Part shown: positions 4,879 to 64,000 of the stretch, piece by piece
How positions within the stretch are numbered: the first letter of the stretch is position 1
Layout of the letters: the number at the start of each line of letters is the position of its first letter
Source: Eledone cirrhosa
Taxonomy: Eukaryota
Reading direction: 5' to 3'
NCBI GenBank assembly: GCA_964016885.1
Contig: OZ024742.1
Location: forward strand, 35,712,001 to 35,776,000
Length of the DNA: 64,000 nt
Made by a program: the position numbers and the translations under genes
The notes under the pieces: model-generated
What the model was told of the DNA's origin: nothing
Seen by the model: only the letters and a program-made list of their open reading frames with translations
The model's database searches: none

Positions 4879-5504
4879 TTATGTAATATTCGGCTTGTAG
4901 TGGGAAAAAAGGGTTTTAGTTCTGTGACGGCAGAATAATGTTCGTTCAATTCTGTTATTCAGCAATTTCTTCTTGTGTGTGATTATGTAATAAATCTCAA
5001 GATTACACAATTTGCAGAAATTTTGGCTCCTGGAAAAGCTTTGGGTTTTAGCTAATTTCTCCCATTTTAGGGTAAACTTTTGATCGCTATCCCTGAGCGT
5101 CCAAGCTTTTTCTGCTAAAGTTGTTACATTTCTTTGGCTCTGGTGTTTTATTGAGTAAGAATGCCTATATAATCGAGATTTAAACGATGTTGCCGTTGAT
5201 CCCACGTAATACCACTCGTTGCCTCCGGATTTAATGGTACACTTATAAATAATATTTTTTTCCAGGCAGTTATTGCCGAGGGGGCAGTTGTCAGGATAGG
5301 TGCAGTTACAGTTGTGTACGTTGGGTTTTCTCTGGAGTAGTATTGCGGACGAACTTAGGTGTGGTTTATTTATGTTCTGTAGTGTATTGTCTACTGTTTT
5401 TTTTGTGTTCTTTGTACTTAAGTTCTTAGTGTTTTCGTTTAACCTTCTAGTATTGATTTTTTTGTGTGTTGTTCAAGGTTTAACGCTGTAGAGTATGACA
5501 GTCT

Positions 5505-11904: not shown

Positions 11905-12097
11905 TATAGAGATAGATAAATCTACCAAAATGTACGGCAGTGTCCAATCCGTATGAAGAACTCAATGTAATCCGAATATCATGAAAAGAGAAGATGTATT
12001 CAAAAAAATTTTTCGGTGAAAATTAACGGAAAACAGAGTCAAGATAAATTAATAAAATAATGAATAAACAAAGAAACAGTTCCTTATATTAAAAAAT

Positions 12098-12235
12098 TCA
12101 TCATTTTACGATCGTTTCTAGGATATATATGTTAGTGTTGGTATGCATATCCTATAGATCTATGTAAAAATTTTACAAACTATCAGAGGGAATATACATT
12201 CCTACACATATATATGCTGTCTTCAGAAATAATGA
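12098..12235 (-). ncRNA. Type I HHR with a 101-nt stem II insertion (mirror of 15308-15455)
   Basis: Minus strand: TCATTATTT-CTGAAGA-[101 nt]-GAAA-CGATCG-TA-AAATGATGA. Confidence 0.72.
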
Positions 12236-12923
12236 TATTTGTTTATTGAAAAAACCAACAAAGATTTAATACAATAGGTCTGTTTGGGAACAGGTTTTGA
12301 ATTGACCAATAGAAGGATAGTGAAGGTCAAGATAGTAATATAGTAGTAAAAGAACCTTAATTTATGGGTAGAGGAAGGTAGATTTCAGTTTTGGATGGAA
12401 AGAATATTATGAATGAAAGATTATTTTAGGGATGAGAATAGGTCATATGCTGACCTCAGAAATAATTATATTTGTTCATTGAATAAAACCAACAAAGATT
12501 TAATATAGTAGGTTTGTTTGGGAACAGGTTTTGAATTAACCAATAGAAAGGTAATAATTGGCCAAATGGTAAAATAGTAGTAATTGAAATTTATTTTGGG
12601 GTAGAAGAAGGCAGATTTCAGTTTTGAATGGAAGGAGTATGAAGAATGAAAAGTTTATTTTAGGGGTGAAAATAGGTCAGGTCAGTAAAAGGTAACACGA
12701 AAAGTTGCTGTTATAAAAGAATAATGTAAATATCTAAGGAGACTAAAATTTTACGATAAAAGTGTTAGTGAAAAAAATATATATGGAATTTACATCTATG
12801 AAAAGAAAATAAATTAATTTAATTGATGGGTATATTTATATTGATAAAATTATATTAATGCTTATAGATATGATAAATAAGAGTGCTGTTAAAGACGAGG
12901 GGGAATTTAAAAAAATATAAAAA

Positions 12924-12982
<59 letters not shown>

Positions 12983-13216
12983 TTGGGGGGGGGGGGTAAA
13001 TTTATTAGTGAGAAATAATAAATATATAGAGATTTCAAGGAACATAGAATCATAACCTGAAATTAAAACATTATATATGTTTACTTAATGGTATCAAAAT
13101 TAGGAAAAGATAGTTGTAAGAAGGAAAGTAAATTTATGAAGTTCATCAGTAGTAGAATATTAATTATTGGTTACCTAAATTAAAAATAGTTTTTATATTA
13201 ATTTCTAAAATGTATA

Positions 13217-13724
13217 TTAATTAGGTTTATAATATTTAAAGGTTTTTCTCAGTTTATGATTACACGATATTATTAATTCCTGTCGCTTATTTAATAGGAT
13301 ATCCTTAGATTTCATTATTTCAAAAAGTTCTTGGGAACATAATTTACATTCATATCTATTATTTTGATAAGGGGTGGCCCTTTTGAGCACACTCCAGGTC
13401 AGGTCATAATCTATATTCCTCTTTCTATAATTATTAATTATTTCAGCTAGAGATGTTGTATTAGCTAATGCGGCATTTTTAAAACTGTGTTTGTGGGTAT
13501 TAAATCTTACCTTAAATTGGTTAGAGGTAGCTCCTATATATGAATAAATTGAGTCCTTAGTGTTAACTTTACATTTATATACTATGTTATTAACAAGGCA
13601 ATTTCCTTTTAATGGGCAGTTTGCTTTGTTTCTACAGTTACAACTTTTCTTGAATCCTGTATCAGAGGAGATATTATGGTTAGTTTGATGTACTCGTGGT
13701 ATGCTCATGGTTTTTTTACATTTT
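13217..13724 (-). pseudogene. PLE GIY-YIG endonuclease C-terminus (left arm)
   Basis: CNCRNKANCPLKGNC...IVYKC...YIGAT..FKVRFNTH...LTW...CKLC..E...LLNKRQE...CNH. Confidence 0.88.
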
Positions 13725-13729
13725 TTACA

Positions 13730-14344
13730 TTTTTTACAACCACAAATACCATCAAATTTTAAATAGATCAACGGTTAAATTCTCCTACTCAACAACCAAA
13801 AACATAAAACAAAATATAAGTGACTACAATGCATATAAATGTAAAAAAAACCATGAGTATACCACGAGTACATCAAACTAACCATAATATCTCCTCTGAT
13901 ACAGGATTCAAGAAAAGTTGTAACTGTAGAAACAAAGCAAACTGCCCATTAAAAGGAAATTGCCTTGTTAATAACATAGTATATAAATGTAAAGTTAACA
14001 CTAAGGACTCAATTTATCCATATATAGGAGCTACCTCTAACCAATTTAAGGTAAGATTTAATACCCACAAACATAGTTTTAAAAATGCCGCATTAGCTAA
14101 TACAACATCTCTAGCTGAAATAATTAATAATTATAGAAAGAGGAATATAGATTATGACCTGACCTGGAGTGTGCTCAAAAGGGCCACCCCTTATCAAAAT
14201 AATAGATATGAATGTAGATTATGTTCCCAAGAACTTTTTGAAATAATGAAATCTAAGGATATCCTATTAAATAAGCGACAGGAATTAATAATATCGTGTA
14301 ATCATAAACTGAGAAAAACCTTTAAATATTATAAACCTAATTAA
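13730..14344 (+). pseudogene. PLE linker plus GIY-YIG endonuclease (right arm; +1 frameshift in the A-run at 13843-13850)
   Basis: ILNRSTVKFSYSTTKNIKQNISDYN joins KKTMSIPR...CNCRNKANCPLKGNC if the A8 run is read as A7, which is its length in the left arm. Confidence 0.88.
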
Positions 14345-14863
14345 TATACATTTTAGAAATTAATATAAAAACTATTTTTAATTTAGGTAACCAATAATTA
14401 ATATTCTACTACTGATGAACTTCATAATTTTACTTTCCTTCTTACAACTATCTTTTCCTAAAATTGATACCATTAAGTAAACATATATAATGTTTTAATT
14501 TCAGGTTATGATTCTATGTTCCTTGAAATCTCTATATATTTATTATTTCTCACTAATAAATTTACCCCCCCCCCCAATAATTATATATATATATATATTC
14601 TTTTTATATTTTTTTTAATTCCCCCTCGTCTTTAACAGCACTCTTCAATTACATCTAACTCTTATTTATCATATCTATAAGCATTAATATAATTTTATCA
14701 ATATAAATATACCCATCAATTAAATTAATTTATTTTCTTTTCATAGATGTAAATTCCATATATATTTTTTTCACTAACACTTTTATCGTAAAATTTTAGT
14801 CTCCTTAGATATTTACATTATTCTTTTATAACAGCAACTTTTCGTGTTACCTTTTACTGACCT

Positions 14864-15330
14864 GACCTATTTTCACCCCTAAAATAAACTTTTCATTCTT
14901 CATACTCCTTCCATTCAAAACTGAAATCTGCCTTCTTCTACCCCAAAATAAATTTCAATTACTACTATTTTACCATTTGGCCAATTATTATCTTTCTATT
15001 GGTTAATTCAAAACCTGTTCCCAAACAAACCTACTATATTAAATCTTTGTTGGTTTTATTCAATGAACGAATATAATTATTTCTGAGGTCAGCATATGAC
15101 CTATTCTCATCCCTAAAATAATCTTTCATTCATAATATTCTTTCCATCCAAAACTGAAATCTACCTTCCTCTAACCATAAATTAAGGTTCTTTTACTACT
15201 ATATTACTATCTTGACCTTCACTATCTTTCTATTGGTCAATTCAAAACCTGTTCCCAAACAGACCTATTGTATTAAATCTTTGTTGGTTTTTTTCAATAA
15301 ACAAATATCATTATTTCTGAAGACAGCATA
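14864..15330 (+). repeat. Diverged tandem duplication (~233 bp x2) in the PLE 3' UTR
   Basis: TGACCTATT...ATTTCTGA(GGT/AGA)CAGCATA occurs at 14864-15096 and 15097-15330. It is mirrored in the left arm. Confidence 0.85.
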
Positions 15331-15455
15331 TATATGCGTATATATGTGTAGGAATGTATATTCCCTCTGATAGTTTGTAAAATTTTTACATAGATCTATA
15401 GGATATGCATACCAACACTAACATATATATCCTAGAAACGATCGTAAAATGATGA
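15308..15455 (+). ncRNA. Type I HHR with a 111-nt stem II insertion
   Basis: TCATTATTT-CTGAAGA(15317)-[111 nt closed by ATATATATG/CATATATAT]-GAAA(15435)-CGATCG-TA-AAATGATGA. Stem I is 9 bp with one G-U pair. Confidence 0.72.
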
Positions 15456-15503
15456 ATTTTTTAATATAAGGAACTGTTTCTTTGTTTATTCATTATTTTA
15501 TTA

Positions 15504-15574
<71 letters not shown>

Positions 15575-18722: not shown

Positions 18723-19179
<457 letters not shown>

Positions 19180-35963: not shown

Positions 35964-36629
35964 ATCTATAAATAATTTATGAAGAATATATAATATGACG
36001 GGTAATTTTGAATAACAGTAATAAAAATGTATAAATATATGAAAATATAATTAAATATCGTTGTCTTTTTAAACTGCATTCTTTAAGACGTCTTTCTTTT
36101 ATTTTCAAAGAGAAAAAGGTGTAGTGTGGGTGAAATATGCTTACTGGTTTATTTTAGCAGGTTCAATGACCATATAACTGTTTTCTAGACAAACTGGAGC
36201 AGAATTATCATCGAAGGTGTACAAGCCATAAGGAAAAAAGTCACAGAAAAAAGTTACAATTTGGGTTAAGAAAAAAGAAAAATATCACATCTCATTATAT
36301 ATATATAGAAAGGGCGGTGAATTGGCAGTATCGGTAGAGGGTTGAACGCCATGCGTTGACGCATAGAGTTACTGCCCTTGCCATTCTGAGTTCAAATCCC
36401 GCCGAGGTTAACTTTGCCTTTCATCCTTACGGGGTCGATAAAATAAAGTACCAGTAATGCACCGGGAAATTGCTGGCCTTGTGCCAAAAGTAGAAACAAT
36501 TATATATATATAGAAAAAAAGATGAAATCGAAAATGCAACTGGAGTGTTATTTTTTTTTAAAAATATATATTTATTTGGTTCCTTTACGGATTTCGCAGT
36601 TCTTCTGCTTTTCAAAAGTAGAGTTGAGA

Positions 36630-37519
36630 TGGAGGGTCTGTGGTTTTTCTCACATCAGATGTGGTACCTCCGTAAAAACACTTATTAGCAAGACATACCC
36701 GTTCCAAAGACCCTCATGTATAGATAAGAAATGTATAACCTGTAAAATAAGCCCCCATATTAACTGTAAAACTAGAAATGTAGTGTATAGCATAAGATGT
36801 ACTGAAGGACAATGTAGAAACAAAAATATAGTGTACATAGGTGAGACAGCTCGTAGTATAGGGGAACGAATAAATGAACACTGGCGAGACCTTCAAGATA
36901 ATAAAGAATCATCTGTGCTCTACCAACATGCTAAGATAGAACACAGGGTTAAATTAGAGAACATAGAAATAAAAATAGAATCCACACACAGAAAAGATGC
37001 AATGTTTAGGCAAATTACAGAGGCAGTAAGCATAAAAGAATTATAACCAAAATTAAATAGAAAATATGAGTGGAACAGCAACATCACAACTTACAATTAA
37101 GGACAAAATGAAAACACACACACACATAGAACAAACAACCAACCAACAATAAATAAATAAATAAATAAATAAATAAACAAATAGATAAATGAACACAAAC
37201 ACACACAGACACCCGGATGTGGCGCATGCGCAAACTGAGCACACAACACACACACAGAAACAAAATGGCGTAGGACAGAAGAAAGGAAAGCCACAGAAAC
37301 AAAGAAAGGAATCCCCAGTCACTGAAGAGGTCACAGAGTGTGTGACGAAAGGACTATGACTATATATAAACAACTATCTGGTTGTGGAACCAACCAACCA
37401 ACCAGAAATTTATAAGTTTGTAGATTTGTAAATTTATAAATTTATAAATATATAATAAATTGAAGTGAAAGCAGCTGGTGCGTGTGTTTCTTATTGGCAA
37501 CATGACCCTCCCAAAGTAT

Positions 37520-39861: not shown

Positions 39862-40243
39862 GCAACTGGTGCGTGTGTTTCTTATTGGCAACATGACCCT
39901 CCCAAAGTATAACAATATCGGTTTCAACACACGATTTCAGATAAAGAATCTTGCTAAACAAATTCAGAAACGAAATATATATATATATATATATATATAA
40001 CGAAGGAAGTGCGGTAAGGAACCAGGTGGACCATAACGCACCAGAGTACTCGATACTTTGGGTAGTAGAGTGGGTAATAGGAAAAGGTTGAGGACCCCGA
40101 CGGCAGAGCTCAAGCTGTCGGGATCCTGAACTTTTTCCTATTACCCACTCTACTACCCAAAGTATCGAGTACTCTGGTGCGTTATGGTCCAGAAATAGCC
40201 GTCGAAACGGCTTGAACTCTGCCGTCGGATTCCTGAGCCTTTT

Positions 40244-40421
<178 letters not shown>

Positions 40422-41717: not shown

Positions 41718-41780
<63 letters not shown>

Positions 41781-41783
<3 letters not shown>

Positions 41784-41969
41784 GGAACCAGTAAGACCCC
41801 GACAGCTGAGCTCAAGCCGTTTCGACGGCTAATTCCCAAAATTAGCCGTCGAAACGGCTTGAGCTCAGCTGTCGGGGTCTTACTGGTTCCTATTACCCAC
41901 TCTACTACCTCAAGTATTGAGTACTTTGGTGCGTTATGGTCCACCTGGTTCCTTACCACATTTCCTTCG

Positions 41970-41971
<2 letters not shown>
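41781..41971. mobile_element. Short fold-back (TA)n-inserted repeat carrying an HHR 3' half. Other copies: 22878-22970, 39999-40247, 42050-42140, 46308-46337, 46361-46552, 49720-49858, 50424-50623
   Basis: The shared sequence is GTC-GAAA-CGGC-TTGAGCTC(T/A)-GC(C/T)G-TC-GGGGTC...CTTCCTTCGTT(AT)n, with internal inversions. Confidence 0.8.
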
Positions 41972-42011
<40 letters not shown>

Positions 42012-42639: not shown

Positions 42640-42823
42640 AGATAGATAAATATTAGTTTAACCATGATAATAATAAGAAAGGCAAGTTACTTTACATATT
42701 TTTACATATTTCATTCATTATATATATATATATATGTGTGCGTGTGTATGTATATATACATATATGTATATATATATATATCTATATCTATATATATATA
42801 TATATATCTATATATATATACAT

Positions 42824-43694
42824 AGGACTTAAAATTAACCTGGCTAAGACCAAAGTACTAGTTTGTAGGAAAGAAAACAAGGCGGCGGTCCCTTCTGGGA
42901 AATGGTCGTGCTCGGTGTGTAGGAAAGGCGTAGGTAGAAACTCCATTTTATGTCCTAAATGCAAAGTATGGGTGCATAAAAGATGTAGTGGGATCACAGG
43001 TAGGCTAACTAAGAACATAGATTTTACATGTGGCCGGTGCTCTGGTGCAATAAGTAGCAGCAAGTGCCCACAAACTACTAGCTCTTTCAATTGCGCAGAG
43101 GGTTCTATAGAAATAGTGGACAGCTTCCGTTACCTGGGCGATAAAATCAGCAGTGGGGGAGGGTGCTCTGAAAGTACTGTAGCTAGAGTCAGAACTGGTT
43201 GGAAAAAGTTCAGAGAGCTTATACCACTATTAGCTGCTAAAGGGTTCTCACTAAAAATGAAAGGCAGGTTGTACGATGCCTGCATACGAACAGCAATGCT
43301 GCATGGCAGTGAGACCTGGGCATTGTGTGCAGAGGATATACGCAGACTAGAGAGGAACGAAGCTTGCATGCTCCGCTGGATGTGTAACAGTAATATACGT
43401 GAACGGCAAAGCATAAACGAACTAAGGAATAAATTAGAGATAAGAGGGATCAGATGTTGTTTACTCGAGAGAAGGCTACGTTGGTATGGACACGTGATGC
43501 GCATGAAAGTCGATAGCTGTATAACAAAGTGCAGGGCAATAAAGATAGACGGTAGTCACGGAATAGGCAGACCTAGAAAAACCTGGGACGAGCTGATAAA
43601 CTCCGACATCACACACTTACACCTCTCCAAGACAATGTCACTGGACCGAGACCTTTGGCGGTACTCAGTAACAGAGAAGACCCGCCTTACCTAA
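42824..43694 (+). pseudogene. 5'-truncated RTE-clade LINE ORF2 (end of the RT domain, an inserted PHD-like finger and the C-terminus); the frame is still open
   Basis: GLKINLAKTKVL...EIVDSFRYLGD...WKKFRELIPLL...MLHGSETW...RRLRWYGHVMRM...GRPRKTW...DRDLWR. The N-terminus of the tracked ORF is microsatellite. Confidence 0.92.
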
Positions 43695-46310: not shown

Positions 46311-46548
46311 CTCTGCCGTCGGGGTCATACATTTTCATATATATATATATATATATATATAACGAAGGAAATGTGGTAAGGAACCAGATGGACCATAACG
46401 CACCAAAGTACTCAAACTTAGGGTAGTAGAGTGGGTAATAGGAACGAGTAGGACCCCGACGGCTGAGCTCAAGCCGTTTCGACGGCTAATTCTGGACAGA
46501 ATTAGCCGTCGAAACGGCTTGAGCTCAGGCGTCGGGGTCCTACTCGTT

Positions 46549-46587
<39 letters not shown>

Positions 46588-46816
46588 TCTGATATATATA
46601 TATATAATCTTTTCCTGGGTCCTGTATTTTCGTTGCTCTAGTGATGCTGGACTGCCGACCGCTATATCTGATTTGCTAAGCTGTCTGAACGTATTATTAT
46701 TACTCTGGGGTCTTTTCCCCATCTGAGTGCTAAAGCTACAGACCGATTCTGCATTCGTTAGCTTGGCCGTGTTCTAAAGCTTCGTTAATGCTGTACTAAA
46801 ATTTATATATATATAT

Positions 46817-47749
46817 ATACTATATATATAGAGTTATAAACTCAAACAGTCTTTTACAATTAAATAGCTCAAAGAAAGAAATATTTCTGAGCCGTGAAAT
46901 ACAAGTTAATATAAATTAATATATATGATAAACACCAATACAATCATATTAGTGTTTGTATTGTAAATGACCAAGTTAGCTAGATTGAAGAATACTAATT
47001 ATATAAATACAGTTTGCCTGTCTCGATTTAAAACAATAAATCAATAAAAACAAACCCATATTGGCAATAGCCGTGGTACTTGGACAAATTTAAATTTCAA
47101 AATCCAAACCTGTTCCGTAGATAAGTTTAAACTTCAAAATCCAAATAAGTTTCGATAGTTGAAAAAGTGAAAAAATACCATTTTCAGTTCTCATCAGCAA
47201 GTACCCAGAAAATTGGTATGTTTCACCTCAAAATATTTAAGAAGACTGATCAACGCACATGGTTTTTCAGTGTCTAGCCACCACATACTCGTGCTGCTAG
47301 AAATAACAGCCGTTTTTATGGAAGGAGCCGTAATACTATAAATATAGAGTTATAAACTCAAACAGTCTTTTACAATTAAATAGCTCAAAGAAAGAAATAT
47401 TTCTGAGCCGTGAAATACAAGTTAATATAAATTAATATATATGATAAACACAAATACAATCATATTAGAAAATGGTATTTTTTCACTTTTTCAACTATCG
47501 AAACTTATTTGGATTTTGAAGTTTAAACTTATCTACGGAACAGGTTTGGATTTTGAAATTTAAATTTGTCCAAGTACCACGGCTATTGCCAATATGGGTT
47601 TATTTTTATTGATTTATTGTTTTAAATCGAGACAGGCAAACTGTATTTATATAATTAGTATTCTTCAATCTAGCTAACTTGGTCATTTACAATACAAACA
47701 CTAATATGATTGTATTGGTGTTTATCATATATATTAATTTATATTAACT

Positions 47750-47754
<5 letters not shown>
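46817..47754. mobile_element. Non-coding 516-bp-period element: ~1.26 tandem units (minus sense) plus an inverted segment (47468-47754), (TA)n-flanked
   Basis: 46817-46952 repeats at 47333-47468. 47468-47754 is the reverse complement of ~46899-47185. Confidence 0.88.
47075..47205 (-). ncRNA. Type I HHR with a 65-nt stem III containing a 12-bp palindrome
   Basis: Minus strand: GGTACTTG-CTGATGA-GA..TGAAAA...TTTTCA..TC-GAAA-C[...AAGTTTAAACTT...]G-TC-CAAGTACC. Confidence 0.75.
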
Positions 47755-47794
<40 letters not shown>

Positions 47795-49684: not shown

Positions 49685-49719
<35 letters not shown>

Positions 49720-49931
49720 AGGAAAAGAGTCAGGACCCCGACGACTAAGCTCAGCCGACGGGGTCATGAGTCTTTTCCTATTACCTACTCTACTACACTA
49801 AGTATCGAGTACTCTGGTGCGTTATGGTCCACCTACTTCCTTACCACACTTTCATTGTTACACACACACACATATATATATATATCGATGATATTAATAA
49901 ATGGAAACTATATTTATAAAACCATATATAT

Positions 49932-50288: not shown

Positions 50289-50358
<70 letters not shown>

Positions 50359-51273
50359 CATATATATACATATATATGTGTGTGTGTGTTGGTATGTGTG
50401 TGTGTGCGTGTATATATATATATAACGAAGGAAGTGTGGTAAGGAACCAGGTGGACCATAACCAACCAGAGTACTCGATACTTTGGGTAGTAGAGTGGGT
50501 AATAGGAAAAGGTTCGGGACCCCGACGGCAGAGCTCAAACCATTTCGACGGCTATTTCTGGAGACCAGAAATAGCCGTCGTTCCGGCTTGAGCTCTGCCG
50601 TCAGGGTCCTGAACCTTTTCCTATATATATATATATATATATCCTCAGTCCACTATTTGCCTCCATCGTGGTATCATGGATCAACTAAGCAGTCTTGCTA
50701 TATCAACACATTTTGATCTGCTTAACATCAACAACTTTGCCGGTAAGTAACATTATTTTTCTTCCACATTGACTTTTTATGCTCTACATTATGTACTTTT
50801 TTTTTTCTTTTTCTTTTTTCTTTTCACTTCATAAACCTTGTTTGTAAATAACATTATTCTTTCTGCACCTTCTGTTTAACATGTTCGACACCACCATTCT
50901 ACACCAATACATTTCACTATCATTTGATAATGCATAAAAATGCTGAAACCGGTAATAGACAATTATTAAATAGATAAATAGATAAATAAATACCATTGTT
51001 AAATAATAAATAAATCAACTAATACCTTAACACATCACACAAAGTAAAACATTTCGTTTTAATCATGTTCTAACCCAGAAAAAAGAGAGAGAGAAACAAA
51101 AAATGAAAAAAAAAATGTTCTTCCTAATAATCGTCTCTTTCTCCCTGTTTTCATATATATATATATAGGCATACTAGTAATCATTTTCTTGCTCAAGTTT
51201 AAGAGTTTGAGTAACGCAGTGAACTGTGAATCGGTGTAAATCTTTATCTAATTATATATATATATACATATAT

Positions 51274-58717: not shown

Positions 58718-59476
58718 AATTAAGTCAAAGATGTACATCCATATATGTATACTGAAATACTAGTATGTATATGAATACACACACGTATACATATGTAGAT
58801 GTACCAAGTTTTTTTTCACTGATCACTTTACTGTGAGTGGCCAGCTATTCTGTATGTAAACACACAGACAAACCGGTTTTTAGAGTCATACTGGTTTTTG
58901 AGGAAACACCTTTCCTCTATTCTCCAGAAAGCCAGACAAGGAATATTGAACTAGTTTCGTTGTTGTTACAACTCATCAGCAATATTTACCTATCTTCCGG
59001 CCTCTCTAGAGAATCGTAAAAGCACATATCGCTATATGCTTTTTCTATGAAAATTAGTAGTGGGCAGACCAACTTGCATAGAGTGTGAGTAAGTACCGGT
59101 TCAACGGAGACGATAAAAACAAATAACGAAACGAAATTAAATTTCGTTTCGTTTGTAACTCACTTTTGTATGACTGACGCTCAAACAATTAAGTCAAAGA
59201 TGTACATCCATATATGTATACTGAAATACTAGTATGTATATGAATACACACACGTATACATATGTAGATGTACCAAGTTTTTTTTCACTGATCACTTTAC
59301 TGTGAGTGGCCAGCTATTCTGTATGTAAACACACAGACAAACCGGTTTTTAGAGTCATACTGGTTTTTGAGGAAACACCTTTCCTCTATTCTCCAGAAAG
59401 CCAGACAAGGAATATTGAACTAGTTTCGTTGTTGTTACAACTCATCAGCAATATTTACCTATCTTCCGGCCTGTCT
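58718..59476 (-). repeat. Inverted ~1.6 units of the 470-bp repeat, abutting (TA)n; HHRs at 58942-58986 and 59411-59455
   Basis: Reverse complement of the downstream unit. The junction is at 59476/59477. Confidence 0.95.
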
Positions 59477-62400
59477 TTGGTCTGCCCACTACTAATTTTC
59501 ATAGAAAAAGCATATAGCGATATGTGCTTTTACGATTCTCTAGAGAGGCCGGAAGATAGGTAAATATTGCTGATGAGTTGTAACAACAACGAAACTAGTT
59601 CAATATTCCTTGTCTGGCTTTCTGGAGAATAGAGGAAAGGTGTTTCCTCAAAAACCAGTATGACTCTAAAAACCGGTTTGTCTGTGTGTTTACATACAGA
59701 ATAGCTGGCCACTCACAGTAAAGTGATCAGTGAAAAAAAAACTTGGTACATCTACATATGTATACGTGTGTGTATTCATATACATACTAGTATTTCAGTA
59801 TACATATATGGATGTACATCTTTGACTTAATTGTTTGAGCGTCAGTCATACAAAAGTGAGTTACAAACGAAACGAAATTTAATTTCGTTTCGTTATTTGT
59901 TTTTATCGTCTCCGTTGAACCGGTACTTACTCACACTCTATGCAAGTTGGTCTGCCCACTACTAATTTTCATAGAAAAAGCATATAGCGATATGTGCTTT
60001 TACGATTCTCTAGAGAGGCCGGAAGATAGGTAAATATTGCTGATGAGTTGTAACAACAACGAAACTAGTTCAATATTCCTTGTCTGGCTTTCTGGAGAAT
60101 AGAGGAAAGGTGTTTCCTCAAAAACCAGTATGACTCTAAAAACCGGTTTGTCTGTGTGTTTACATACAGAATAGCTGGCCACTCACAGTAAAGTGATCAG
60201 TGAAAAAAAAACTTGGTACATCTACATATGTATACGTGTGTGTATTCATATACATACTAGTATTTCAGTATACATATATGGATGTACATCTTTGACTTAA
60301 TTGTTTGAGCGTCAGTCATACAAAAGTGAGTTACAAACGAAACGAAATTTAATTTCGTTTCGTTATTTGTTTTTATCGTCTCCGTTGAACCGGTACTTAC
60401 TCACACTCTATGCAAGTTGGTCTGCCCACTACTAATTTTCATAGAAAAAGCATATAGCGATATGTGCTTTTACGATTCTCTAGAGAGGCCGGAAGATAGG
60501 TAAATATTGCTGATGAGTTGTAACAACAACGAAACTAGTTCAATATTCCTTGTCTGGCTTTCTGGAGAATAGAGGAAAGGTGTTTCCTCAAAAACCAGTA
60601 TGACTCTAAAAACCGGTTTGTCTGTGTGTTTACATACAGAATAGCTGGCCACTCACAGTAAAGTGATCAGTGAAAAAAAACTTGGTACATCTACATATGT
60701 ATACGTGTGTGTATTCATATACATACTAGTATTTCAGTATACATATATGGATGTACATCTTTGACTTAATTGTTTGAGCGTCAGTCATACAAAAGTGAGT
60801 TACAAACGAAACGAAATTTAATTTCGTTTCGTTATTTGTTTTTATCGTCTCCGTTGAACCGGTACTTACTCACACTCTATGCAAGTTGGTCTGCCCACTA
60901 CTAATTTTCATAGAAAAAGCATATAGCGATATGTGCTTTTACGATTCTCTAGAGAGGCCGGAAGATAGGTAAATATTGCTGATGAGTTGTAACAACAACG
61001 AAACTAGTTCAATATTCCTTGTCTGGCTTTCTGGAGAATAGAGGAAAGGTGTTTCCTCAAAAACCAGTATGACTCTAAAAACCGGTTTGTCTGTGTGTTT
61101 ACATACAGAATAGCTGGCCACTCACAGTAAAGTGATCAGTGAAAAAAAAAAACTTGGTACATCTACATATGTATACGTGTGTGTATTCATATACATACTA
61201 GTATTTCAGTATACATATATGGATGTACATCTTTGACTTAATTGTTTGAGCGTCAGTCATACAAAAGTGAGTTACAAACGAAACGAAATTTAATTTCGTT
61301 TCGTTATTTGTTTTTATCGTCTCCGTTGAACCGGTACTTACTCACACTCTATGCAAGTTGGTCTGCCCACTACTAATTTTCATAGAAAAAGCATATAGCG
61401 ATATGTGCTTTTACGATTCTCTAGAGAGGCCGGAAGATAGGTAAATATTGCTGATGAGTTGTAACAACAACGAAACTAGTTCAATATTCCTTGTCTGGCT
61501 TTCTGGAGAATAGAGGAAAGGTGTTTCCTCAAAAACCAGTATGACTCTAAAAACCGGTTTGTCTGTGTGTTTACATACAGAATAGCTGGCCACTCACAGT
61601 AAAGTGATCAGTGAAAAAAAACTTGGTACATCTACATATGTATACGTGTGTGTATTCATATACATACTAGTATTTCAGTATACATATATGGATGTACATC
61701 TTTGACTTAATTGTTTGAGCGTCAGTCATACAAAAGTGAGTTACAAACGAAACGAAATTTAATTTCGTTTCGTTATTTGTTTTTATCGTCTCCGTTGAAC
61801 CGGTACTTACTCACACTCTATGCAAGTTGGTCTGCCCACTACTAATTTTCATAGAAAAAGCATATAGCGATATGTGCTTTTACGATTCTCTAGAGAGGCC
61901 GGAAGATAGGTAAATATTGCTGATGAGTTGTAACAACAACGAAACTAGTTCAATATTCCTTGTCTGGCTTTCTGGAGAATAGAGGAAAGGTGTTTCCTCA
62001 AAAACCAGTATGACTCTAAAAACCGGTTTGTCTGTGTGTTTACATACAGAATAGCTGGCCACTCACAGTAAAGTGATCAGTGAAAAAAAAAAACTTGGTA
62101 CATCTACATATGTATACGTGTGTGTATTCATATACATACTAGTATTTCAGTATACATATATGGATGTACATCTTTGACTTAATTGTTTGAGCGTCAGTCA
62201 TACAAAAGTGAGTTACAAACGAAACGAAATTTAATTTCGTTTCGTTATTTGTTTTTATCGTCTCCGTTGAACCGGTACTTACTCACACTCTATGCAAGTT
62301 GGTCTGCCCACTACTAATTTTCATAGAAAAAGCATATAGCGATATGTGCTTTTACGATTCTCTAGAGAGGCCGGAAGATAGGTAAATATTGCTGATGAGT

Positions 62401-64000
62401 TGTAACAACAACGAAACTAGTTCAATATTCCTTGTCTGGCTTTCTGGAGAATAGAGGAAAGGTGTTTCCTCAAAAACCAGTATGACTCTAAAAACCGGTT
62501 TGTCTGTGTGTTTACATACAGAATAGCTGGCCACTCACAGTAAAGTGATCAGTGAAAAAAAACTTGGTACATCTACATATGTATACGTGTGTGTATTCAT
62601 ATACATACTAGTATTTCAGTATACATATATGGATGTACATCTTTGACTTAATTGTTTGAGCGTCAGTCATACAAAAGTGAGTTACAAACGAAACGAAATT
62701 TAATTTCGTTTCGTTATTTGTTTTTATCGTCTCCGTTGAACCGGTACTTACTCACACTCTATGCAAGTTGGTCTGCCCACTACTAATTTTCATAGAAAAA
62801 GCATATAGCGATATGTGCTTTTACGATTCTCTAGAGAGGCCGGAAGATAGGTAAATATTGCTGATGAGTTGTAACAACAACGAAACTAGTTCAATATTCC
62901 TTGTCTGGCTTTCTGGAGAATAGAGGAAAGGTGTTTCCTCAAAAACCAGTATGACTCTAAAAACCGGTTTGTCTGTGTGTTTACATACAGAATAGCTGGC
63001 CACTCACAGTAAAGTGATCAGTGAAAAAAAACTTGGTACATCTACATATGTATACGTGTGTGTATTCATATACATACTAGTATTTCAGTATACATATATG
63101 GATGTACATCTTTGACTTAATTGTTTGAGCGTCAGTCATACAAAAGTGAGTTACAAACGAAACGAAATTTAATTTCGTTTCGTTATTTGTTTTTATCGTC
63201 TCCGTTGAACCGGTACTTACTCACACTCTATGCAAGTTGGTCTGCCCACTACTAATTTTCATAGAAAAAGCATATAGCGATATGTGCTTTTACGATTCTC
63301 TAGAGAGGCCGGAAGATAGGTAAATATTGCTGATGAGTTGTAACAACAACGAAACTAGTTCAATATTCCTTGTCTGGCTTTCTGGAGAATAGAGGAAAGG
63401 TGTTTCCTCAAAAACCAGTATGACTCTAAAAACCGGTTTGTCTGTGTGTTTACATACAGAATAGCTGGCCACTCACAGTAAAGTGATCAGTGAAAAAAAA
63501 CTTGGTACATCTACATATGTATACGTGTGTGTATTCATATACATACTAGTATTTCAGTATACATATATGGATGTACATCTTTGACTTAATTGTTTGAGCG
63601 TCAGTCATACAAAAGTGAGTTACAAACGAAACGAAATTTAATTTCGTTTCGTTATTTGTTTTTATCGTCTCCGTTGAACCGGTACTTACTCACACTCTAT
63701 GCAAGTTGGTCTGCCCACTACTAATTTTCATAGAAAAAGCATATAGCGATATGTGCTTTTACGATTCTCTAGAGAGGCCGGAAGATAGGTAAATATTGCT
63801 GATGAGTTGTAACAACAACGAAACTAGTTCAATATTCCTTGTCTGGCTTTCTGGAGAATAGAGGAAAGGTGTTTCCTCAAAAACCAGTATGACTCTAAAA
63901 ACCGGTTTGTCTGTGTGTTTACATACAGAATAGCTGGCCACTCACAGTAAAGTGATCAGTGAAAAAAAACTTGGTACATCTACATATGTATACGTGTGTG
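59477..64000 (+). repeat. Tandem array of 469-472-bp non-coding units, each with one HHR (retrozyme-like); runs off the window
   Basis: CTGATGA occurs at 59570, 60040, 60510, 60979, 61451, 61920, 62392, 62861, 63330 and 63799. The only differences I see are in one A-run (8, 9 or 11 A). Confidence 0.97.
59563..59607 (+). ncRNA. Minimal type I HHR of the array unit (first of 10 plus-strand copies); predicted cleavage after 59600
   Basis: AATATTG-CTGATGA-GTTGTaacaACAAC-GAAA-CTAG-TT-CAATATT. It has a perfect 7-bp stem I, a 5-bp stem II, an intact core and a GUU triplet. Confidence 0.92.

Follow-up and report, generated by a model that had tools for sequence, protein, structure and literature searches.

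Architecture of the element

Which kind of element leaves a non-coding repeat that is partly tandem and partly inverted, carries a hammerhead motif and sits between two TA repeats, and what copies it? We addressed this question for positions 46817–47754 of the window, by which we mean the whole 64,000-nt stretch of Eledone cirrhosa DNA analysed here. Our answer is that the element probably belongs to the Penelope-type retroelements and, being non-autonomous, is a non-LTR retrozyme. A Hydra-type Penelope-like element (PLE) of the same genome, which has both of the unit's end signals, likely provides the RT-endonuclease that copies the RNA of the unit into (TA)n.

The main arm (46817–47468, minus strand) is 652 nt long, i.e. 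a 516-nt unit plus 136 nt of the next one, and is followed by an inverted arm of 287 nt (47468–47754, plus strand) that corresponds to unit positions 83–369. These boundaries follow from a 136-nt direct repeat with 99% identity and a spacing of 516 nt (46817–46952 and 47333–47468) and from a 287-nt inverted repeat (46899–47185 and 47468–47754), in agreement with the first-pass annotation, which had described ∼1.26 head-to-tail units plus an inverted segment. It had also reported (TA)n at both ends and no ORF. Indeed, both outer ends join (TA)n, at 46804–46818 on the left and 47752–47780 on the right, and no frame inside exceeds 40 aa, the longest ATG frames being 30–40 aa. Any target-site duplication would be masked by the (TA)n target. 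The proposed period of 516 bp, in turn, had to be corrected: compared with close relatives such as L002, the window unit is 20 nt short at ∼47321, and the units of these relatives, likewise non-coding and arranged head to tail, measure 533–536 nt with a GC content of 0.31.

The family in the genome

A DNA search of the 3.0-Gb source assembly returned 3452 candidates, 40 of which were scored. Searches for exact patterns gave lower bounds of at least 161 cleavage-site 20-mers, at least 586 junctions between TA and unit position 83 and at least 338 tail 29-mers. The 138 loci collected represent 114 distinct insertions, or 112 without the segmental duplicates L025 and L028; these 112 come from five modes of collection, and two of the modes are biased towards full-length copies. 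L024, L025 and L028 (G000:C4:320.0–320.4 Mb) are one insertion in triplicate, a segmental duplication. Sister lineages of the unit share ∼75–90% identity. The insertions are dispersed and inverted and comprise 1–3 units, a third unit being reached by 4 of 165 arms. Two or more consecutive units with complete hammerheads are present in L002, L008, L010 and L017. The window copy has a single complete hammerhead, because its inverted arm contains the 3′ part only (47468–47578) and thus lacks the CUGAUGA half.

A type I hammerhead with a duplicated helix III

The type I hammerhead motif lies on the minus strand (47205–47075) and consists of stem I (GGUACUUG/CAAGUACC), CUGAUGA, GAAA and GUC, with 65 nt from C15.2 to G16.2. 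The 8-bp stem I, intact core, GUC site and 65-nt stem III region noted earlier were thus all found, and the hammerhead three-way junction was the minimum-energy fold (−39.3 kcal/mol, z = −5.06; none of 200 shuffles scored as well), with pair probabilities ≥0.9 throughout stem I and helix III except for one terminal pair (0.79). Self-cleavage is predicted between 47083 and 47082. A scan of the window against Rfam at gathering thresholds gave no match for the hammerhead. We discarded the strong self-pairing of the unit circle as evidence, as the antisense (z = −5.2) and sense (z = −4.9) circles behave alike.

We then aligned the ribozymes of 59 copies with two helix III arms, one per insertion (54 parsed by pattern and five by eye); 31 of 127 segments could not be parsed, and an alignment of parsable motifs favours intact pairing. 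Four of the eight stem I pairs showed two-sided changes, C3–G8 was replaced by U3–A8 in four copies, and the second stem II pair was either A–U or C–G. In total, 98.1% of cells were paired, a level reached by none of 500 shuffles, and registers slid along the alignment gave at most 56%. Relatedness of the copies inflates these covariation counts, yet different pairs change in different lineages. Conservation of the hammerhead pairings, on which the first-pass annotation had staked its reading, was therefore borne out: they are kept with compensatory changes, and stem I covaries across subfamilies. RNAalifold, when applied to the family, recovered helix III and missed stem I. The core is less uniform: G10.1–C11.1 is broken in 15 of the 59 copies, which belong to lineages that have inserted independently many times. 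Spread may therefore not require full ribozyme activity. An axolotl retrozyme still cleaves weakly despite a U·U mismatch at the base of helix II (PMC7229834), and core-damaged copies may therefore be slow rather than dead.

Repeats, fold and alignment all indicate that the 65-nt helix III region (47085–47149) is a tandem duplication of a 37-nt palindromic arm (47074–47110 and 47111–47147). In the lineage of the window copy, GAAA was kept in the first arm and GUC in the second. The two arms pair with each other as a 24-bp, G·U-rich helix (98.8% paired across the 59 copies, with mostly A–U/G·U variation), which is capped by cUACGg (47115–47120 in the window) or cUGCGg, presumably a tetraloop of the UNCG class. 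The palindrome seen in the stem III region, AAGTTTAAACTT, maps to 47123–47134 and is maintained in the family by two compensatory changes (AAGTTTAAACTT, AAATTTAAATTT, AGGTTTAAACCT). Several lineages contain copies with one arm and hence a helix III of 28 nt, and in L085 and L074 one-arm and two-arm units are mixed within single insertions. We did not retain the one-arm form as ancestral, since such copies are found in several lineages and beside two-arm units and loss by slippage is as likely. The energy of a single arm is −3.8 kcal/mol when folded alone and −18.4 kcal/mol as a dimer. Animal hammerheads usually have a helix III of 1–2 bp and work as dimers (PMC4209133). Duplication of the arm would therefore supply the dimer partner internally, so that one ribozyme is predicted to fold as a monomer, and the two forms offer a natural experiment on dimeric versus monomeric hammerhead activity.

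Insertion ends and start signals

Across the family, unit positions 1 and 83, 82 nt apart, are the points at which outer ends fall, apart from a few at position 93. Each of the two fixed points lies directly 5′ (RNA sense) of a hairpin, ACGGCUC-loop-GAGCU, the loops of which differ between the two sites and between lineages. In the window, repeat comparison and relatives show that the main arm begins at unit position 1, the distal start site, and the inverted arm at the proximal one. The 82-nt tail between them (46817–46898, minus strand) was delimited from relatives and end counts. Signal matches identified the proximal start signal, ACGGCUC-loop-GAGCUA, at 46865–46895 (minus strand), directly 3′ (RNA sense) of unit position 83, and a second copy in the next unit at 47381–47411 (minus strand). 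At the unit–unit junction (47321–47332, minus strand) there is no signal match; comparison with L002 and others revealed a remnant of the distal signal there, its GAGCU half having gone with the 20-nt deletion. The window copy, which has a single complete ribozyme and has lost the distal signal inside it, has probably reached a dead end. On the minus strand of an intact unit, ACGGCU occurs four times: once in each start signal, once immediately after stem I and once downstream of the distal signal.

Globally, the signal matched the assembly 2272 times, compared with two matches for the control, and seven of the first 100 matches listed belong to other families. Isolated signal hairpins folded no better than shuffles. 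Among 62 insertions whose two ends both lie at start sites, position 1 was used at exactly one end in 61, and this one-tail rule held in all five ascertainment groups. (TA)4 adjoins 157 of 173 start ends versus 15 of 33 truncated ends. The inner ends were scattered along the unit, and a truncation pile-up at the hammerhead cut, which we had considered, was absent (1 of 165 inner ends at the predicted cut versus ∼4 if uniform). A test for circular permutation of the ends, suggested by the first-pass annotation together with more-than-unit-length, permuted copying, thus gave a divided answer. Copies do exceed unit length; they are not randomly permuted, since the outer ends of the arms stop at two fixed points and the inner ends alone vary. 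The insertions combine a partial tandem, an inverted truncated copy, a one-sided tail and two fixed RT starts. The first three are the known PLE insertion pattern (PMC8557442; PMC3846280), and an anole PLE uses two internal RT starts in vitro, priming on both DNA strands (PMC11167929).

The template

Which RNA is copied? It is not a cleaved linear monomer, because copies cross the cut site without a pile-up. We favour, with some reserve, an RNA circle made by the hammerhead. Each arm loses its own start signal, so copying of linear RNA would shorten arrays with each generation, and no long donor array was seen: arrays of more than three units were absent from the complete list of 33 exact matches and from the first 100 listed of each of the 161 cleavage-site, 338 tail and 2272 signal matches, with the caveat that assemblies can collapse arrays.

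A less probable but substantial alternative keeps the same element and helper and takes the template to be an uncleaved linear multimer from tandem genomic copies, with a slow or dispensable hammerhead and no circle. Lineages with damaged cores have spread, L085 mixes one-arm and two-arm units, and the single inner end at the cut site fits uncleaved RNA as well as circles. Published in vitro data also point this way, unprocessed RNA being the main substrate of the anole PLE (PMC11167929) and Xenopus retrozyme dimers being cleaved in 1 of 9 cases (bioRxiv 10.64898/2026.07.22.740005). Against such a template, some arms do reach a third unit, yet no longer array was present among the matches just described; stem I and C3–G8 covary; and only 18 of 749 within-insertion differences are polymorphisms common to relatives, nearly all others being private. 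Arms in the same register differed slightly less than units in different registers (2.3% versus 2.7%; Fisher p = 0.04, paired Wilcoxon p = 0.15), a weak lean towards the linear template. A search of sequencing runs for the sequence listed none of RNA; three runs share ∼0.3 of its words and are no evidence. On balance, the genomic data fit either template, and the circle is somewhat favoured.

A candidate helper

A PLE carrying the same signals is present in the genome. In L207, a minimal hammerhead is followed by TTGTAT and the signal, 92 nt, a second signal, an ATG ∼70 nt further on and a frame for RT and endonuclease; in 15 of 30 further loci, the ORF also comes directly after the signal. 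Among the 40 copies scored, the second (distal) signal is the end point of 26, and 14 run on towards the ORF. The 27-mer at the first signal was found in 30 places, where 13 copies stop, two run on to the ORF and 15 enter the tail, 10 of the latter being seen to end in TA (L263 counted from its sequence). All six opposite-strand pairs combine one arm with a tail and one without. The protein has RWR (RWK-like), DKT, CxCX5C, CxxC and CxH motifs as well as a GIY-YIG-type domain at its C-terminus, and L249 retains an open frame of 831 aa with these Hydra-clade motifs. Searches of Pfam and PDB with the protein gave no match, and a homolog search returned 194 relatives, mostly unnamed. The element is young, with 99% identity between copies, and shares with the unit both the TTGTAT of the proximal start and the ACGGCTCC...GTTGAGCT of the distal start. 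As this autonomous Hydra-type PLE has the same two hairpins, ends and one-tail rule, it is likely the helper. Outside the signals we found no DNA similarity between unit and candidate, and descent of the one from the other is unsupported by these parts of the sequence.

As a control, we looked for the start signal in a second abundant PLE family and found it in none of 34 loci. This family is represented in the window at 12044–15509 by head-to-head 3′ fragments of an autonomous PLE (63801 candidates) with Hydra-type motifs, an 830-aa open frame in L079 and an extra ∼135 nt at the left end only. Because its 34 loci have neither the signal nor DNA similarity to the unit, we rejected this family as the helper.

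It is rather unlikely, though worth weighing, that the retrozyme is mobilised by a different PLE family, such as that of L209 or an unsampled one, or by a group of families with this signal in common. The signal does occur, with different loops, in several families; the listing covered the first 100 of its 2272 matches; and the tail is 82 nt in the unit versus 92 nt in the candidate. Nevertheless, the candidate shares the flanking motifs at both starts, has nearly identical copies and retains an open frame. The family of L209 (3960–4145), L300 and L308 has a hammerhead and the same signal, is inverted and TA-flanked and possibly represents another PLE of the candidate's group; it could be the helper instead. 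A non-coding hammerhead family with a 478-bp period, the same start signal and TA end and a short helix III was observed at L297 and L305 (G000:C2:11699659; C2:126632638).

We also asked whether the unit might be a pseudo-LTR or the truncated 3′ end of an ordinary autonomous PLE, a reading to which the insertion architecture lends itself (PMC8557442; PMC3846280). The first-pass annotation had named constant joining to a PLE ORF as the sign of an ordinary pLTR; no copy in the 112 insertions runs into an ORF. Among 95 segments that reach the far end of the unit, the next unit follows in 79; the remaining 16 stop, invert, or meet TA or unrelated DNA, and none enters an ORF. The unit furthermore has no similarity to the flanks of the two PLE families, which makes this origin very improbable. 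PLE coding fragments beside some copies are separate neighbours or targets, L126 being inserted into one. Apparent chimeras at L020 and L169 were likewise dismissed as template switches, since the unit is a neighbour or an insert there. Finally, a satellite or foldback repeat arising at the DNA level, with a hammerhead-like motif by chance, would suit the AT-rich sequence and the equally strong antisense folding of the circle, but can hardly account for copies that are dispersed rather than arrayed, that have polarised ends and whose pairings covary in the register of the ribozyme but not when it is slid.

The window holds other elements as well. A 469-bp tandem array at 58718–63591 has an inverted head and a minimal hammerhead with a palindromic CTAG loop III. 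In a BLAST of the window against itself, it had no similarity to the unit, and the earlier statements that the two are unrelated and that at least two such families coexist in the window therefore stand. As it also lacks the ACGGCUC signal, the 469-bp family probably has a different helper. Short TA-flanked foldbacks of one family (46337–46553, 41727–41995, 39975–40266, 49718–49902 and 50292–50642) are probably truncated PLE-type insertions, and further hammerhead-like motifs with minimal helix III occur at 18940, 19082, 39802, 48212, 22707 and 58346. Positions 4879–5472, 36447–37046 and 42657–43694 comprise two more PLE endonuclease fragments and one RT C-terminal frame, which we take to be LINE-like.

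A possible mechanism

If the candidate PLE moves the unit, its protein would bind both start hairpins and cut both strands of a TA repeat, priming one cDNA at each start. The two cDNAs would extend in one direction along the RNA, end at random points and be joined head to head, and this join would produce a tandem plus an inversion with a tail at one end only. We tentatively suggest, as a conjecture that may well prove wrong, that one hairpin, present twice, positions a pair of RT molecules on a circular RNA, one per cut strand, which would explain the tail, the inversion and the one-tail rule, and that duplication of the palindromic arm makes a dimer-dependent hammerhead monomeric.

Comparison with known systems

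Both the retrozyme class and its suspected dependence on PLEs are already known: animal non-LTR retrozymes have been proposed to be non-autonomous dependants of PLEs, as argued from co-occurrence, shared hammerhead type and pLTR similarity (PMC7229834; bioRxiv 10.64898/2026.07.22.740005). Like them, the unit is a non-coding, low-GC tandem with one type I hammerhead per unit. Its length lies above the 150–450 bp of PMC7229834 and within the 51–972 bp of bioRxiv 10.64898/2026.07.22.740005, where two or more consecutive complete hammerhead units define an ‘active’ retrozyme. Judged by sequence, the family is an animal non-LTR retrozyme, with a damaged core in some lineages. It differs in forming short, dispersed, inverted insertions instead of long arrays, in a helix III of 28 or 65 nt instead of 1–2 bp with a tetraloop, and in that its link to a PLE consists of shared end signals and the same end usage, unlike the earlier arguments.

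PLE insertions (PMC11167929; PMC8557442; PMC3846280) resemble the family in their partial tandem, inverted truncated copy, one-end tail, two starts and AT-rich target. In contrast to them, the family has no ORF and a tail of 82 nt rather than 30–40 nt, each start is accompanied by a separate copy of one hairpin motif, and the one-tail rule has been counted (61 of 62). The candidate helper resembles Hydra-clade PLEs (PMC8557442) in its RWK-like, DKT, CxCX5C, CxxC and CxH motifs, GIY-YIG-type C-terminus, hammerhead and (TA)n targets; its period is 5.2–5.7 kb compared with ‘generally under 3 kb’ in that clade, to which it is assigned from motifs alone. The minimal, dimer-forming hammerheads of PLEs (PMC4209133) share a palindromic loop III with the unit, in which it shows compensatory changes. 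Unlike theirs, the palindrome of the unit lies in a long duplicated arm and gives a helix within one molecule. Large helices III are reported in PMC4209133 for fungal and protist PLEs and not for animals.

A literature search, with subscription papers and supplements outside its scope, found no description of the family, of a start signal shared by a retrozyme and a PLE, of a counted one-tail rule or of a duplicated helix III; related elements may be listed in the supplements to PMC8557442 and to the 2026 preprint. In PMC7229834, PMC8557442 and bioRxiv 10.64898/2026.07.22.740005, two questions are left open, namely what autonomous element mobilises animal retrozymes and in what way PLEs produce tailed tandem and inverted copies. 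The family described here offers an RNA of ∼535 nt, a co-resident helper candidate with an open frame, a short motif that may serve in recognition and a strict rule for the pairing of ends, and therefore makes both questions testable in the existing in vitro PLE assay.
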